A stretch of DNA of 22,149 nucleotides from an uncultured archaeon (lineage in GTDB: Archaea > Aenigmatarchaeota > Aenigmatarchaeia > CG10238-14), in the NCBI GenBank assembly GCA_964392445.1, contig CAYMPD010000019.1, forward strand, positions 1 to 22,149, written 5' to 3'. Shown here in pieces: positions 1-21,962 of this stretch. The position numbers and the translations under genes are program-made. Within the stretch, counting starts at the first letter, position 1. Each line of letters opens with the position of its first letter. The notes beneath the pieces were generated by a model. It did no database searches. It saw nothing but the letters and a program-made list of their open reading frames with translations, and was not told the DNA's origin.

Positions 1-1447
1 TAGCCCCCCTCGCGGAACCCAAATTTGACATTCCCATTAAGAGAGCGCCTCATTTAGACTCCACTCGGATGGCTTGACGGGCGGTGTGTGCAAGGCACAG
101 GGACATATTCGACGAACGATAATGACGTTTGTCTACTAGAAATTCCAGCTTCGCGAGGTTGAGTTACAAACCTCGATCCGTACTTAGTATAAGTTTAAGA
201 GATTGGCTTCCCCTCTCGGGGTTGCAACTCATTGTCTCATACATTGTAGGCCGCGTGTAGCCGGGGAAATTCGGGCCATACTGACCTACCGTCGCCTCCA
301 CCTTCCTCTGGTTTATCACCAGCGGTCTCCTATGAGTGCACTCTTGCGAGTTAGCAACATAGGATGGAGATCTCGCTCGTTAACGGACTTAACCGCACGC
401 TTCACAGTACGAGCTGACGATGGCCATGCAACTCCTCTCAGCTTGTCTGGTAAACCCTTCAGATTGACCTTCATCCTGCTGTCGATCCCCGTGAGATTTC
501 CGGCGTTGGATCCAATTGAACCGCAGCCTCCACTTCTTGTGTGTGCCCCCGCCAATTCCCTTAAGTTTCAACCTTGCGGTCGTAATTCCCAGGTGGCCCA
601 CTTAACACCTACGCTCCGGCACAACAAACCCTCGTAAGGTTTGTAGCACCAAGTGGGCATCGTTTACGCCTAGGACTAACGGGGTATCTAATCCCGGTCG
701 CTACCCTAGGTTTCGTCCCTCACCGTCGAACCTGTTCTAGGTGGACGCCTTCGCCACTGGTGGTCCCACTGGGATTATAGGATTTTACCCCTCCCCCAGC
801 AGTACCTCTACCCTCTCCCAGTCCCAAGTCTAGCAGTATCCCCAGCAAGCCTACTAGTTTTCCAGTAGATTTCACTAGGGACTTACAAGACCGGCTACGG
901 ACGCTTTAGACCAACTAATACCGGATACCACTTGAGGCGCAGGTATTACCGCTTACCGTTCTAAGAGTTATTAAACTCCCTAGAATGGCGGCTGGCACCT
1001 GTCTTACCCACCTCTTATTCTCCGAGCGATTTTGACTCGGTAAAAGCTTATGCAAAGCATAAGCACTCCAGATCCCCCCATCGTGCGTTAACACAGTGTG
1101 AAGGTTCCGCGCCTGCTGCGTCCCGTAGGACCTGGATTCATGTCTCAGAATCCATCTCTGGGCTTCCACTCTCATGGCCCATACCCGTTATAGCTTTGGG
1201 GGTACATTACGCCCCCAACAGGCTGATAAGGTGTAGTCCCATCCTAAAGCAACGGATTTTTCGGACGTTTTATCATTCCAGACCAAAACGTCTATCAGGT
1301 ATTAGCCTCAATTTCTCGAGATTATCCCTGACTTTAGGGTAGGTTAACTACATATTACTGAGCAGTACGTCGAGTCCCGAAGACTCTCAACTTGCATGGC
1401 TTAGTCGGATCCGGATAGCGGTATCCTCCGGCAGGATCAACCGGAAT
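1..1447 (-). rRNA. rrs: 16S rRNA, archaeal (3' end, roughly 50 nt including the anti-SD, lies outside the window)
   Basis: Minus strand begins ATTCCGGTTGATCCTGCCGGA at 1447. Conserved blocks: CCTACGGGACGCAGCAGGCGCG, GTGCCAGCCGCC/GCGGTAATAC, ATTAGATACCCCGTTAGTCC, AAACTTAAGGGAATTGGCGG, GCACACACCGCCCGTC. The window starts just inside the 1492R site. Confidence 0.99.
953..986 (-). other. 34-nt hairpin-type archaeal BHB intron in the 16S rRNA 530 loop (between E. coli-equivalent C526 and G527)
   Basis: Sense RNA reads GUGCCAGCCGCC[AUUCUAGGGAGUUUAAUAACUCUUAGAACGGUAA]GCGGUAAUAC. The intron folds into an 11-bp stem with one bulged G and a UAAU loop. Exon GCCG pairs with intron CGGU as the 4-bp central helix, flanked by 3-nt bulges CC|A and AA|G. 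Confidence 0.92.
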
Positions 1448-18531: not shown

Positions 18532-18589
18532 GAGTATTATTATCGGAGTCTGAAAATATATTTATTCGAACTTTTGCACCTATAATTAA

Positions 18590-18599
18590 CTTATAAATA
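18590..18599 (+). promoter_or_regulatory. TATA box of the four-gene frameshift operon
   Basis: CTTATAAATA ends 31 nt upstream of ATG 18631, leaving room for a short leader with the SD-like GTGTGA. Confidence 0.55.
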
Positions 18600-18630: not shown

Positions 18631-18865
18631 ATGACTGGTGAATTAGTTTGGTTTACCAAATTCAGCTCAAAAAGTGTTTAGAGTTTTATCTAGATCACCC
18701 TCGCTTTCTCAAAAAGAAATTAAAAATAAGACTGGGTTATCTATTCGTTCTGTGAAGGGTTCTTTGAAACTGCTTAGAGAAGAGGATATTGTTGAGGAAA
18801 TGCCTGTTTTTGAGGATATGAGAAGGAAGAAGTATGTTTTAAGAGGTGGAGGGAATGAAAGGTGA
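18631..18865 (+). CDS. Small wHTH regulator, 77 aa when assembled through a +1 frameshift at GTT-TGG (18646-18651)
   Basis: Frame 0 gives MTGELVWFTKFSSKSV* (stop 18679-18681). A +1 shift gives MTGELV-GLPNSAQKVFRVLSRSPSLSQKEIKNKTGLSIRSVKGSLKLL..., restoring an LPxSAxxV first helix typical of small archaeal wHTH proteins. The ORF track calls only 18674-18865. Confidence 0.75.
18637..18651 (+). promoter_or_regulatory. Recoding motif copy 1: GGTGAA-TTAG-TTTGG
   Basis: In-frame GGT GAA TTA GTT TGG after ATG 18631. The long ORF is in the +1 frame. Confidence 0.8.
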
Positions 18866-19548
18866 ATGTGTTTGGCGTTATAGGAGGATTGGGACCAGAA
18901 GCTACATCCAAATTTTACTTAGATGTTATTAGAAGATTTATTGAAAAATATGAATATTACCCACAAATGTTGATAGATAACGTATCTTTTCCCCAAAGAT
19001 TGGAACAAGAAATAATTCGAGACTGTAGGAATGAAAATGAAATATTGCCTTTTCTAATAAAAAGCGTAAAGAAATTAAACAAAAGTGGGGTCGATTTTCT
19101 AGTTATACCCTGTAATACTTTGCATATTTTTATTGAAGAATTAAGAAGAAAATCAGAAGTTCCTATACTAAGTATTGTTGACGAGACTACAAAAAAAATA
19201 AAACAAAAAGGATACGAAAGAATAGGTCTATTAGCAACTTCTAAGACTGTAAAATCAGAATTATTTGAAAATAGCTTTGAAATGATTCTCCCAGAGGATG
19301 AAGAACAGGATGAAATCTCTAGAATAGAACTTCGAATACTAAGGAATCAGGCTGCCCAGGAAGATAAAATTTTTATGGAGAATATCATTAAAAAGTTGAA
19401 AAATCAAGGTTCTGATGCTATAGTAGTTGGTTGTACCAATCTGCATCAGGTAATAGATACCAATGAGAATAAAATCGATATAATTGATACTTTGGAAGTT
19501 TTGATTGATTCTAGCTTTAAAAGAATGATAAGAGGTGAGTCGAAATGA
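18855..19548 (+). CDS. Aspartate/glutamate racemase family protein, 230 aa when assembled through a +1 frameshift at GTT-TGG (18870-18875)
   Basis: GVIGGLGPEAT, catalytic cysteine pair IPCNTLH and VGCTNL, and IGLLAT. SD GAGGTGG (18843-18849) precedes ATG 18855. Frame 0 stops at 18930-18932. The track uses GTG 18862. Confidence 0.85.
18861..18875 (+). promoter_or_regulatory. Recoding motif copy 2: GGTGAA-TGTG-TTTGG
   Basis: In-frame GGT GAA TGT GTT TGG after ATG 18855. Confidence 0.8.
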
Positions 19549-19899
19549 CTGGTGAAAGTTTTTGGGAGAGTTATAAGAACAAGAAGTGATCCAGCTCAAG
19601 GAGTTGCTAGAAGAAGAGCGCAGTATAGAGATGGACATGAACCTAGAATAACTAGAATTGATCCTTATGAAACCCTTAGTGAAAGAGAAAGAGAAATTTT
19701 AACACATATAGCTAGTGGTGGTTCTCATTATTTTGGAAATGTTACTCGTGCTCTCGGATTAGGTATAGGTTCTATAGATTCAGTTGGTCAAACGATGAGA
19801 TCAATGGTTTATAGACTTACTGGTGGAAAAAGACGGGGTGCCAGTACTGATAATCTTAGATATATTGCCAGAATGGCGAAATCAAAAGGTTTAATATAA
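19545..19899 (+). CDS. Hypothetical protein with a degenerate LuxR-like HTH, 117 aa when assembled through a +1 frameshift at TTT-TGG (19560-19565)
   Basis: ATG 19545 overlaps the racemase TGA (ATGA) and follows SD GAGGTGA (19532-19538). Frame 0 gives MTGESFWESYKNKK*. The +1 ORF contains LSEREREILTHIASG...ALGLG..SV...RL...ARMAKSKGLI. Confidence 0.65.
19551..19565 (+). promoter_or_regulatory. Recoding motif copy 3: GGTGAA-AGTT-TTTGG
   Basis: In-frame GGT GAA AGT TTT TGG after ATG 19545. Confidence 0.8.
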
Positions 19900-19912
19900 G
19901 AGGTGAAGAAAA

Positions 19913-20303
19913 ATGAGAAAAATAGGTGAATATATTTGGGGTTCTGGAAGATGGGATATTAGGACCGGAAAGAATCTTTGTCGTCAGAGGGGTTGAAGAG
20001 CCAGACTATTCCGATTATTCTTTCGGTAAAGTAAGGGGAAGTATAGGTGCTGGTTTAAGTGGTACCTTGTATTCTCGTGAAATACCAATAAGAAGATTTA
20101 TTATCGAATTGGGAATAGATGGGGAAGATTATCGAATTGGTACTAGAGTTCCTCTTGAATCCATAGACACAAGAGAATCATTTGATGGTATTCTACCAAG
20201 AGATTTAGATAAGATTAGAAAGTTAGTGGGTAAAAAAATCGTTATGAGATCGATAAAACCCTATAATTCACGGACTATAAGAAAATTAGCAAGGAAAAGA
20301 TAA
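19913..20303 (+). CDS. Hypothetical protein, 129 aa when assembled through a +1 frameshift at ATT-TGG (19934-19939)
   Basis: SD GAGGTGA (19900-19906) lies 6 nt before ATG 19913. Frame 0 gives MRKIGEYIWGSGRWDIRTGKNLCRQRG*. A +1 shift gives MRKIGEYI-GVLEDGILGPERIF... Confidence 0.6.
19925..19939 (+). promoter_or_regulatory. Recoding motif copy 4: GGTGAA-TATA-TTTGG
   Basis: In-frame GGT GAA TAT ATT TGG after ATG 19913. Confidence 0.8.
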
Positions 20304-20327
20304 TTTTACCTTTTCTTTTTTATTTTT
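20304..20327 (+). terminator. Oligo-T tract, candidate archaeal intrinsic terminator between the operon and ybaK-trpS
   Basis: TTTTACCTTTTCTTTTTTATTTTT directly follows the TAA at 20301-20303. Confidence 0.5.
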
Positions 20328-20347
20328 CAAAAATCTAAGTGATAAAC

Positions 20348-20836
20348 ATGTCATTCGTCGAGAAAAAAATCAAAAAACTATTGGAAGAGAAAGGGATAGA
20401 ATACAAGGAATACGAACACGAACCAGTTTACACCTGCGAAGTAGCTGATAAAGTAAGAAAAGGGATAAAAAGTGAAGACAAAGATGACTTCAAAAAAGGA
20501 GGAATAAAAAATCTACTTTTCCAAAAAAGAGGTGGAGAATTCATCATGGTCCTAGGTCCAGGAGATCAGAAAATAGATGAGGATAAGATAAAAGAACTGG
20601 AAGGGACTAAATTTATGAAGCTAGCAAAACCAAAAAGCGTGCAAAGGATAGTAGGTTGTAAAATAGGATGTGTTCCTCCATTCGGCCATAAGAGAAAAAT
20701 AAAAACTTACCTTAACAAAGAATTACTAGAATACGATTATCTGTACTTCAACCCAGGAAATCATTCCAAGACAATCAAAATTAAAGCTAAGGATTTACTT
20801 AAGTTAATTGAAAATCCAATAATATATGAGGGATAA
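20348..20836 (+). CDS. YbaK/ProX (INS superfamily) aminoacyl-tRNA deacylase
   Basis: YEHEPVYTCE, IKNLLF (conserved Lys) and GCKIGCVPPFG (GxxxP loop). The ATG at 20348 is preferred over GTG 20339. Confidence 0.9.
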   Translation: MSFVEKKIKKLLEEKGIEYKEYEHEPVYTCEVADKVRKGIKSEDKDDFKKGGIKNLLFQKRGGEFIMVLGPGDQKIDEDKIKELEGTKFMKLAKPKSVQRIVGCKIGCVPPFGHKRKIKTYLNKELLEYDYLYFNPGNHSKTIKIKAKDLLKLIENPIIYEG

Positions 20837-20837
20837 T

Positions 20838-21962
20838 ATGCCTGAATATCTAGTTACACCATGGGAAGTTAAAGGAAATGTAGATTATGATAAGCTAATT
20901 AAAGAATTTGGGACAGAAAAGATAGATAAAAAACTCTTGAAAAGGATAAAAAAACAGACAGAAAAATTGCATCACTTCCTAAGGAGAGGTATATTTTTCT
21001 CGCATAGAGACATGAATTGGGTTCTAGATGAATACGAAAAAGGAAATAAATTCTACTTATACACAGGCCGAGCACCATCAGGTCCAGTTCATCTAGGACA
21101 TTTGATACCATGGATTTTCACAAAGTGGTTGCAAGACAAGTTCGATGTTAAATTATTGTTCCAGATACCGGACGAGGAAAAGTACTTGTTCAAAGATAAG
21201 TTAACCCTAGAAGACACAAAAAAATGGGCCTATGAAAATATTCTTGACATAATTGCAGTGGGATTTGATCCTAAGAAAACAATGATATTTTTGGACACGG
21301 AATACGCTAAAACTATGTACAAACATGCTTGTAAAGTTGCAAAACACATAACCTTCTCAACTACTAAAGCAGTATTCGGACTAAAGAATTCAAATAATAT
21401 TGGAGAGATTTTTTACACAGCTATGCAATCAGTACCTGCATTTTTACCGAGTATAAGAGAAGGGAAAACAACTCCATGTCTAATACCCTATGCTATTGAT
21501 CAAGATCCACATTTCAGAATTACAAGAGATGTTGCTCCATTACTTGATTATCCAAAACCCGCGGCTTTGCATTGTAGATTCTTACCAGGTTTACAAGGGA
21601 TGTCCGAAGAAGGGAAGATGTCATCTTCTGTTGAATCAACCTGTATTTTTACGACTGATAAACCCAAAGAAGTCAAAGAAAAAATTATGAAGCACGCTTT
21701 TTCTGGGGGGAGAAGAAATGTTGAAGAGCATAGGAAATTGGGAGGGAATTCTGATGTGGATGTTTCTTATCAATGGTTAACATTCTTTGAAGAAGATGAT
21801 AAAAAACTGAAGAAAATATACGAAGATTACAAATCTGGCGACTTACTCACTGGGGAATTAAAACAAATTCTTGTGGATAAATTGAATGAATTTTTAAAAG
21901 AACATCAGAAAAGACGTGAGAAAGCTAAAGATAAATTGGAAGAGTTTATGTTGAGGGATTAG
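20838..21962 (+). CDS. trpS: Tryptophanyl-tRNA synthetase, archaeal/eukaryotic type
   Basis: VTPWEV, FLRRGIFFSHRD, YTGRAPSGPVHLGH (HIGH), IPYAIDQDPHFR, KMSSS (KMSKS), HAFSGG and LLTGELK. Start at ATG 20838 (SD GAGGGA) or 20826. Confidence 0.98.
   Translation: MPEYLVTPWEVKGNVDYDKLIKEFGTEKIDKKLLKRIKKQTEKLHHFLRRGIFFSHRDMNWVLDEYEKGNKFYLYTGRAPSGPVHLGHLIPWIFTKWLQDKFDVKLLFQIPDEEKYLFKDKLTLEDTKKWAYENILDIIAVGFDPKKTMIFLDTEYAKTMYKHACKVAKHITFSTTKAVFGLKNSNNIGEIFYTAMQSVPAFLPSIREGKTTPCLIPYAIDQDPHFRITRDVAPLLDYPKPAALHCRFLPGLQGMSEEGKMSSSVESTCIFTTDKPKEVKEKIMKHAFSGGRRNVEEHRKLGGNSDVDVSYQWLTFFEEDDKKLKKIYEDYKSGDLLTGELKQILVDKLNEFLKEHQKRREKAKDKLEEFMLRD

Follow-up and report, generated by a model that had tools for sequence, protein, structure and literature searches.

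The window analysed here, a stretch of 22,149 nucleotides from the genome of an uncultured DPANN archaeon of the Aenigmatarchaeota, contains four genes on the + strand that are followed by genes coding for a YbaK-like protein and for tryptophan-tRNA ligase (trpS). The likely promoter of this group is found at 18575..18599 (+ strand), ~32 nt before the first ATG, where a TTTGCACCTATAAT element precedes a TATA-like CTTATAAATA; the block is kept upstream of the first cassette gene in the related genomes G001, G004 and G009. At the head of each of the four genes is a short cassette carrying a TGG codon, and the long ORF is found in the +1 frame. The first cassette, with its frame-0 leader ORF (MTGELVWFTKFSSKSV, closed by a stop codon), occupies 18631..18681. 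The putative shift site GTT_TGG (18646-18651) leads to a +1 ORF (18650..18865) that codes for 71 amino acids after the shift, a small winged-HTH regulator according to weak HTH_24/MarR-type matches, whose orthologues in G001, G004, G009 and g9 also bear the cassette. Cassette 2 and its +1 ORF (18855..19548; ATG at 18855, TGG at 18873-18875, frame-0 stop at 18930-18932) code for an Asp/Glu-type amino-acid racemase (PF01177, 117 bits; TIGR00035, 158 bits), the commonest cassette carrier adjoining trpS in relatives. Gene 3 (19545..19899) joins a TTT_TGG cassette (TGG at 19563-19565, frame-0 stop at 19587-19589) to a +1 ORF of 111 amino acids, possibly an HTH protein, for which searches of Pfam, NCBIfam and the ESM Atlas gave weak HTH leads only. 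Gene 4 (19913..20303), with an ATT_TGG cassette (TGG at 19937-19939, frame-0 stop at 19994-19996) and a +1 ORF of 121 amino acids, found no match in the same resources; its homologues carry the cassette in G001 and G004 and are without it in G009. The four trans-frame products total 553 amino acids without a single Trp and the YbaK-like protein is likewise Trp-free, as counted in the original prediction.

The cassettes are compact, 21 nt long, and have the layout SD-ATG-x-GGTGAA-NNN-NTT-TGG. The window has four copies of the motif GGTGAANNNNTTTGG (18637, 18861, 19551 and 19925, all on the + strand), compared to an expectation of 0.02, and a genome-wide count confined it to these four sites in the whole 1.2-Mb genome. 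The earlier observation that UGG is the A-site codon of every putative shift site is confirmed. Each copy has its own SD before an ATG with which the TGG is in frame, and frame 0 closes 14-27 codons past that ATG. The 16S rRNA 3' end of this genome is GAUCACCUCCU and GGTGA serves as SD 4-7 nt before ATGs genome-wide. In most cassettes the GGTGA, complementary to the 16S 3' end, is also found 4 nt ahead of the P-site codon, and the weaker variants GGCGA, GGGGA and AGTGA occur. No significant RNA fold was detected in the four cassette regions or in the spacer preceding ybaK (z-scores from -1.35 to +1.16), leading to rejection of a 3' stimulatory structure and of attenuator hairpins. A scan of the window at Rfam gathering thresholds yielded the SSU rRNA only and no T-box.

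Gene 4 and ybaK are separated by a 44-nt spacer (20304..20347, + strand) featuring T-rich tracts (T4, T4, T6, T5) and then an SD-like GTGAT at 20340-20344. The oligo-T tract described originally at 20304-20327 is T-rich, with a longest run of T6, and the reported lack of a TATA box for ybaK also held, TTTAWA, TTATAW and WTATAA being absent within 20100-20347. The spacer is longer than typical for coupling. A candidate internal promoter at 20262-20290 (CCTATAATT...CGGACTATA), similar to the operon promoter, was discarded because this segment encodes a conserved KPYNSRT peptide and shows no nucleotide conservation in G001 or G004. The YbaK-like protein (20348..20836, + strand) has a tRNA_edit domain (PF04073, 90 bits, cut-off 25.5), and trpS (20838..21962, + strand) is identified by NF008927 (530 bits, cut-off 478) and TIGR00233 (299 bits, cut-off 177). 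The claim that a tRNA deacylase and TrpRS are encoded next in the same orientation stands for TrpRS and for the tRNA_edit domain but not for YbaK at equivalog level, the score against the Cys-tRNA(Pro) deacylase equivalog TIGR00011 being 62 bits, under the cut-off of 153. The trpS ATG at 20838 is 1 nt past the end of ybaK; translation might instead start from an ATG at 20826, but the amino termini of relatives favour 20838.

Verified UGG cassettes number 39, in 20 genomes of two Aenigmatarchaeota families. Frame 0 ends 1-31 codons after the TGG in this set and the +1 ORFs have 65-452 codons. Every P-site codon is an NTT with a T after it (GTT in 23, CTT in 9, TTT in 4 and ATT in 3), and orthologues differ by synonymous frame-0 changes (Leu TTA/CTA/CTT, Cys TGT/TGC). 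The +1 products contain 4 Trp in 6494 residues versus 1.18% genome-wide, a depletion of ~20-fold. Synteny of cassette genes and trpS, on which the original prediction had made itself dependent, extends to relatives: 17 genomes from at least 10 genera have trpS downstream in the same orientation, although they do not represent 17 independent events because kin inherit synteny by descent. Other strict-motif matches in the family genomes, away from trpS loci, failed the anatomy test and are attributed to chance. Cassettes are also carried by TrpB2 in relatives (NF009057, 640 bits) and, in G076, are found on or before trpE of a full trpE-apt-GDCBA-trpS operon and on the aspartate kinase gene heading an archaeal aro operon.

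Versions of the cassette or leader whose codon is one for Cys, His, Pro, Asn, Leu or Tyr are located ahead of cysS, hisS, proS, asnS/gatCAB, leuS and tyrS. This pairing with matching synthetase genes suggests an archaeal mechanism, so far unpublished, for detecting a shortage of charged tRNA. All five stand-alone leaders have a +1 ORF whose end reaches or overlaps the start of the gene under control. Relatives also have tandem double His cassettes, the second located in the +1 frame of the first, so that gating in series does exist. Pattern matches that proved to be ordinary genes were removed, namely LeuRS amino termini (L190, L193), a site internal to aEF-2 (L197) and a DNA-methylase site (L194).

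No trp genes are detectable in the genome, making the organism an apparent Trp auxotroph. UGG is not rare (11.8 per 1000 codons) and there is at least one tRNA-Trp gene, which means that sensing has to depend on charging rather than on scarcity of the tRNA. We infer from this computational analysis that expression of each of the four genes depends on a programmed +1 ribosomal frameshift similar to those of RF2 and Ty1. Ribosomes would initiate at the well-placed SD-ATG, translate five to seven codons and arrive at the site, where NUU would occupy the P site and UGG the A site, with the SD-like GGUGA 4 nt upstream of the P-site codon. When Trp-tRNA(Trp) is plentiful UGG would be decoded and translation would reach a stop 8-19 codons later. 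When it is scarce the peptidyl-tRNA would slip from NUU to UUU, GGN would be decoded and the real protein would be made. It is quite likely that the cassettes sense the supply of Trp-tRNA(Trp). The ybaK-trpS pair most likely belongs to the same transcription unit as the four genes, at its distal end. Frameshifted ribosomes would keep the mRNA translated and in this way increase ybaK-trpS expression, by translational coupling and/or protection from oligo-U/FttA termination; an FttA/aCPSF1 orthologue is encoded in the genome. Control of ybaK-trpS by coupled read-through is a plausible, tentative proposal. It is consistent with the tight or overlapping gene junctions in relatives and with stand-alone leaders whose +1 ORF ends at the regulated gene start. 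The four genes acting as a serial 'AND-like amplifier' is a speculative idea. The original interpretation is borne out in part. As a whole, the explanation combining Trp-gated +1 frameshifts and coupled ybaK-trpS is considered likely. The operon would then be the Trp member of a codon-programmable family of frameshift leaders found in Aenigmatarchaeota ahead of cognate aaRS, tRNA and biosynthesis genes.

The cassettes might instead sense Trp-tRNA but gate only their four genes, with ybaK-trpS expressed independently, from an own promoter or by constitutive read-through, and adjoining the operon by functional clustering. The T-tracts of the spacer could simply be the operon terminator, and trpS, which has no cassette of its own, codes for a TrpRS with 6 Trp that is not suited to Trp-free translation. 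Furthermore, several relatives have trpS but no cassette operon (G003, from the same genus, the g4 genomes and G010). We nevertheless regard this arrangement as unlikely. A TATA-like motif is missing from the region upstream of ybaK, while the SD-like GTGAT before the ybaK ATG is kept in three genomes, G001 and G004 included, which implies a 5' leader. The T-tract is found in G001 (T6) but not in G004, whose spacer has just 27 nt. In g9, G076 and g10 the operon gene before trpS either overlaps it or directly adjoins it, and in the trp and aro operons the cassette is present on the first one or two genes only, so the signal must somehow pass to those downstream.

A set ratio is common among programmed frameshifts, and frameshifting at these sites could be constitutive or just tolerated, UGG being a convenient slow codon without any amino-acid sensing. 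This is improbable because, in the case of seven amino acids (W, C, H, P, N, L and Y), the A-site codon fits the synthetase or pathway adjoining it and because Trp is strongly depleted in the products. It is likewise improbable that the conserved M-x-G-E-x-(V/I/F/L)-X is a stalling leader peptide whose downstream ORF is accessed by re-initiation or non-canonical initiation, without slippage. Gly-Glu is kept at the amino-acid level through synonymous GGT/GGC/GGG and GAA/GAG codons and, since the internal SD is weak in some variants (GGCGA, AGTGA), the conserved element could work as the peptide M-x-G-E; stand-alone leaders without a fused ORF also exist. However, the main ORF invariably occupies the +1 frame and is open directly from the site onward, where a start codon is missing; the P-site codon is NUU in every case; and ribosomes can read the second of the tandem His cassettes only if they have shifted +1 at the first. 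A GTG start within GGTGAA provides plausible amino termini for genes 2-4 (in the racemase, MNVFGVIGG agrees with the profile from its position 3), but absence of recoding, whether by such a start or through pseudogenes or assembly errors, is scarcely credible: a TAG at 18644-18646, after the GTG, closes the +1 frame of cassette 1 and makes this start impossible there, +1-frame stops within 10 of the 39 verified cassettes exclude it, GTG is missing altogether from the g9 variants GGCGAA and GGGGAG, the upstream SD is spaced for ATG rather than GTG, and the anatomy is kept in 20 independently assembled genomes.

Other candidates were rejected. The TTG of TTTGG is in the wrong frame to act as a start. 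A quadruplet-decoding tRNA finds no counterpart among the ARAGORN predictions, whose 4-base 'anticodons' gact and ggag match none of NUUU, UUUG and UGGN and probably both belong to intron-containing tRNAs. Transcriptional slippage was set aside as the T runs have merely 3-5 nt and their length is not conserved.

How archaea sense shortage of amino acids or of charged tRNAs and how they regulate aaRS and biosynthesis genes is largely unknown. To our knowledge no T-box or classical leader-peptide attenuator is described in archaea, and literature searches likewise found none; these searches also returned no published description of the cassette. Aenigmatarchaeota may, on a somewhat favourable balance, use a general codon-programmable aminoacyl-tRNA sensor. 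It would be composed of an SD-ATG leader with NUU and one sensor codon that, when hungry, causes a +1 shift yielding a protein or translation up to the next start, operons of synthetase, tRNA and biosynthesis genes being switched on via coupling and protection from FttA/oligo-U termination. A 2016 review on recoding stated that 'no examples are known' of starvation-specific trans-frame proteins made by hungry-codon frameshifting (PMC5009743). The cassette appears to produce such proteins, has a sensor codon exchangeable among the seven amino acids and lends itself to stacking in series. If this is true, it would be the first natural use of hungry-codon frameshifting for that purpose and an archaeal functional counterpart of bacterial T-boxes and attenuators. 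In the apparent auxotroph studied here the genes indicated as responsive to Trp shortage are those of a regulator, a racemase, two unknown proteins, an editing protein and TrpRS. Confirmation would provide a mechanism open to direct testing and a rule by which gene calls in DPANN genomes could be corrected, such genes being given wrong starts or annotated as fragments there. It would also offer synthetic biology a portable part for expression that responds to amino acids.

The bacterial prfB gene combines a short frame-0 ORF, a CUU P-site codon that re-pairs on UUU, an upstream SD-like element, a slow A-site codon and a product in the +1 frame (PMC5009743). The cassettes share the short frame-0 ORF, the slippery NUU, the slow A-site codon and an apparently functional +1 product, most of them have a GGTGA a few nt upstream as a candidate SD-like element, and in both systems efficiency is expected to rise when the decoder of the A-site codon is scarce. 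In prfB that codon is a UGA stop read by RF2, whereas here it is the sense codon UGG, or others in sister cassettes, read by an aminoacyl-tRNA. The cassette differs also by its archaeal host, by its modular reuse on many unrelated genes, several times per operon, and by the position of the gene supplying the decoder (trpS), which is downstream and not itself shifted, the synthetase gene being usually without a site. Yeast Ty1, ABP140 and EST3 (CUU_AGG_C, with a hungry rare Arg codon) similarly feature P-site NUU slippage driven by a slowly decoded A-site sense codon. In yeast the slowness results from a constitutively rare tRNA, giving a set ratio, whereas the codon used here is common and changes in step with the pathway under regulation, implying that the charging level is what is sensed. 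As proposed for the cassettes, attenuation of the trpL, hisL and pheL type and T-boxes sense charged tRNA to switch on aaRS, trp or aro genes, with codons of the cognate amino acid in short leader ORFs. The cassettes differ from attenuators in having no terminator/antiterminator hairpin, the read-out being a change of reading frame, and from T-boxes by lacking that RNA. Frameshifting in E. coli pheL appears incidental (PMC5009743). Antizyme differs in being eukaryotic, in shifting at a stop codon and in responding to a small molecule (polyamine) rather than to aminoacyl-tRNA supply, but it resembles the proposed system in that the frameshift acts in a metabolic feedback loop as sensor and effector at once.

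The window has four copies of the motif GGTGAANNNNTTTGG, all on its + strand, at 18637, 18861, 19551 and 19925, versus 0.02 copies expected by shuffling. A search of the whole 1.2-Mb genome, which is 94.9% complete and of which the window is one entire 22-kb contig, gave no copy beyond these four. Each of them belongs to a cassette with a good SD (AGGTGA or GAGG) 3-6 nt 5' of an ATG, 1-3 codons between this ATG and the sequence GGT GAA NNN NTT TGG, and a stop in the frame of the ATG (frame 0) 14-27 codons past it. In the +1 frame a long ORF begins exactly past the T of TGG. The +1 ORFs of genes 1-4 code for a small winged-HTH (wHTH) protein, an Asp/Glu-type racemase and two proteins without assigned function; predicted trans-frame junction peptides join, for example, MTGELV to GLPNSAQK and MKGECV to GVIGGLGPEATSK. 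All the observations from which the original prediction set out hold, including the 553 Trp-free residues of the +1 products and the Trp-free YbaK.

Pattern searches of 23 genomes of the family and 118 of the order, with each retrieved locus then inspected, verified 39 UGG cassettes led by an ATG; they are spread over 21 loci in 20 genomes, which belong to two families. The remaining strict-motif matches in the family lack the in-frame ATG, short frame 0 and long +1 ORF of the cassette and are therefore attributed to chance.

The GTG within GGTGAA lies in the +1 frame and was hence weighed as a candidate start codon for the long ORFs, which would dispense with a shift. This reading fails because in gene 1, as in 10 of the 39 verified cassettes, the GTG is followed by a TAG, because the wHTH orthologue of genus g9 has GGCGAA or GGGGAG at this position, without any GTG, because the spacing of the upstream SD suits the ATG instead, and because the codon 5' of the P site varies synonymously in frame 0 among orthologues (Leu TTA/CTA/CTT, Cys TGT/TGC). 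Spacers between GGTGA and ATG are 4-7 nt as a rule in this genome, whose 16S rRNA 3' end is GAUCACCUCCU. The 16S rRNA gene of the window (1-1447, - strand) is truncated by the end of the contig, at position 1430 of the 1478 in the model, and its 3' end, with the anti-SD, is found at the end of contig C31 of the same genome.

The reading preferred here is a +1 shift at the sensor codon. The +1 frame holds a long ORF in all 39 cassettes and the P-site codon is invariably NTT (GTT 23, CTT 9, TTT 4, ATT 3). Fold analysis of the cassettes gave no prominent 3' RNA structure, and a tRNA gene scan of the genome found no tRNA fit for quadruplet reading. Two tRNA-like genes of ~95 nt to which ARAGORN assigns 4-base 'anticodons', gact and ggag (C4 59547-59641 and C18 11036-11129), are probably mis-parsed intron-containing tRNAs. 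GGUGA might act as an SD or, equally, through the encoded Gly-Glu. Frameshifting, its dependence on Trp and an effect on trpS are proposed here purely from comparative sequence evidence.

A further argument for the shift comes from a His leader that is found in tandem in three genera (loci L160, L162 and L184 of genomes G010, G008 and G013, respectively), with CAY sensor codons. Relative to the first cassette, the second GGTGAA-TTA-GTT-CAC is in the +1 frame, and an AbrB/SpoVT-like regulator of 69-78 aa, coded upstream of hisS, is reachable only via two successive +1 shifts. This arrangement makes sense only if ribosomes truly shift; read in this way, the tandem His cassettes show that serial gating exists.

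Searches in which the A-site codon was relaxed brought up the same leader, with the peptide M-x-G-E-x-(V/I/F/L)-X, with other codons (a putative similar leader family, ATGAARGGTGGA / MKGG, belongs to a salt-loving nano-archaeon). In counts that are lower bounds, only GGTGAA-type patterns having been scanned, Cys leaders (UGU/UGC) have cysS downstream in seven of seven relatives, and on contig C13 of the genome studied here one precedes a cysteine-synthase-like PALP enzyme gene with cysS directly after; His leaders (CAC/CAU) are found in seven relatives before a HisRS-like gene or before genes upstream of hisS, Pro leaders (CCA) are followed by tRNA-Pro and proS in at least four relatives, and a Leu leader (CUA) is followed by leuS in one. 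Asn leaders (AAU) go with asnS or non-discriminating aspS in relatives and with gatCAB in this genome, where a Tyr leader (UAC) on contig C4 is followed by tRNA-Tyr and a racemase / YbaK-like / TyrRS module. It is very unlikely that chance would match sensor codon and synthetase for seven amino acids. Some pattern matches proved to be ordinary genes, namely LeuRS N-termini (L190, L193), an internal site of aEF-2 (L197) and a DNA-methylase site (L194).

The Cys cassette of C13 (15412-17730; L159:3413-5734) reads ATG ACT GGT GAA TTA GTT TGT. Its frame 0 codes MTGELVCQG before the stop, its +1 frame has a TAG, and the gated ORF is the 297-aa PALP enzyme. After a second, degenerate Cys leader (C13 14398-15412; L159:2399-3413), ATG GCC GGG GAA TTA GTT TGC, come a LAGLIDADG-type ORF and a tRNA-like acceptor/T-arm, possibly with a GCA anticodon, for which ARAGORN makes no call; a homing endonuclease seems to have interrupted a leader-tRNA(Cys) unit here. 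The Asn leader (L201; C4 62802 to 59624, minus strand) codes MHGECFNLV before its stop, with sensor codon AAT. Its +1 stop overlaps the gatC start codon (ATGGTAG), gatA and gatB follow, and T6 and T5 tracts lie past the leader stop, ahead of gatC. The Tyr region (L200; C4 38450-42070) carries, in this order, a wHTH gene, the Tyr leader (MKGECFYFFIFPW before the stop, sensor codon TAC), an intron-containing tRNA-Tyr, two small ORFs, a racemase paralogue, a YbaK-like paralogue and TyrRS, in parallel to the Trp operon. The racemase / tRNA_edit / aaRS trio is thus present twice in the genome, and it may handle D-aromatic amino acids.

Synteny between cassette genes and trpS, whose absence the original prediction had named as grounds for its rejection, is found in 17 genomes, where a same-strand TrpRS gene lies downstream in the same tightly packed block; three further cassette loci are cut short by a contig edge, too early to judge linkage. 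The TrpRS proteins belong to two types with 30-35% identity to each other, both confirmed as trpS. The trpS neighbourhood is kept despite the change of cassette-bearing genes from genus to genus (wHTH, racemase, GNAT, a small 'GISKKELK' protein, ParB_N-like and unknowns). The locus is flanked by a conserved divergent 311-aa gene, so it is orthologous family-wide and the linked genomes are not independent cases. Some close relatives, namely G003, genus g4 and G010, have trpS without the cassette operon; the system is thus dispensable. The Trp operon of g9 (L022:4032-6541 in G012) also codes a formamidase-family protein, a B3_4-domain protein and one of 325 aa whose domain resembles the TrpRS C-terminus, and G001 (L021:4602-6410) has a 602-aa fusion of a B3_4 domain with TrpRS. 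G016 has both TrpRS types (C29 and C76; L024 and L039; ~35% identity), the second copy being preceded by genes homologous to those for the 325-aa and formamidase-family proteins.

The cassettes are linked to tryptophan also by the genes that they precede. G013 has, among its cassette genes, one for a tryptophan synthase beta of the TrpB2 type (NF009057, 640 bits). In G076 (L111) a small gene that comes first and trpE (TIGR01820, 528 bits) both carry the cassette, heading the operon trpE-apt-trpG-trpD-trpC-trpB-trpA-trpS-pheS in which most neighbours overlap or abut. On this contig, ~12 kb further upstream (L146), another UGG cassette is on an aspartate kinase gene that heads an archaeal shikimate operon (asd, ADH synthase, DHQ synthase II, aroD, aroE, aroK, aroA, aroC, pheA). 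Only 4 of the 6494 residues coded by the +1 ORFs of the 39 cassettes are Trp (0.06%), the mean in long ORFs of the window's genome being 1.18%; with one representative per protein family, ~3 Trp are observed vs ~26 expected. Neither trpE, G, D, C, B, A nor trpB2 was detected in that genome, so the archaeon is probably a Trp auxotroph, as had been supposed.

How the frame decision could reach ybaK-trpS is suggested by other cases. In all five stand-alone leaders examined, that of gatC included, the +1 ORF extends as far as the regulated gene's start codon, its end being at most 10 nt away, and the frame-0 stop lies ~40-150 nt further upstream. In the trp and aro operons the cassette is on the first one or two genes only and seven to ten genes follow with overlapping junctions. 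Since these genes, too, presumably have to be under that control, some polarity must transmit the frame decision; it may pass by termination-reinitiation coupling, by shielding nascent RNA from termination, or by both. In the window, gene junctions 1/2 and 2/3 overlap, the trpS ATG is 1 nt past the stop of the preceding tRNA_edit (YbaK-like) gene, the SD-like GTGAT before ybaK is kept in three genomes, and the 250 nt upstream of ybaK hold no TATA-like motif, features that would fit co-transcription. The T-rich spacer between gene 4 and ybaK measures 44 nt here, 37 nt in G001 and 27 nt in G004; its T6 and T5 tracts recur in G001 and are absent from G004, which is compatible both with a partial terminator and with the plain end of an operon. 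The genome encodes an orthologue of FttA/aCPSF1, which acts with U-tracts in archaeal termination (PMC8716108, PMC11616081). Frameshift-coupled attenuation of ybaK-trpS would be consistent with all these features, a tentative reading that we rate slightly below even.

Fold analysis revealed no attenuator hairpins in the cassette regions and spacer, an Rfam scan showed no T-box in the window, and full-text literature searches found no published description of such a system. The reference review on recoding says that for hungry-codon frameshifting giving starvation-specific trans-frame proteins 'no examples are known', and it rates pheL frameshifting as incidental (PMC5009743). The cassette has the layout of the bacterial prfB/RF2 site (SD, short spacer, CUU_UGA), with a putative internal SD and with UGG as the presumably slowly filled A-site codon, and the proposed working would be alike, an A-site decoder being set against P-site slippage aided by this putative SD. 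It is not strictly of the prfB family, however, because a sense codon occupies the A site and the gene reached by the shift does not code for the decoder. A shift driven by a hungry sense codon would bring it close to yeast Ty1 (CUU_AGG), while its purpose would be shared with bacterial trpL-type attenuators and T-boxes.
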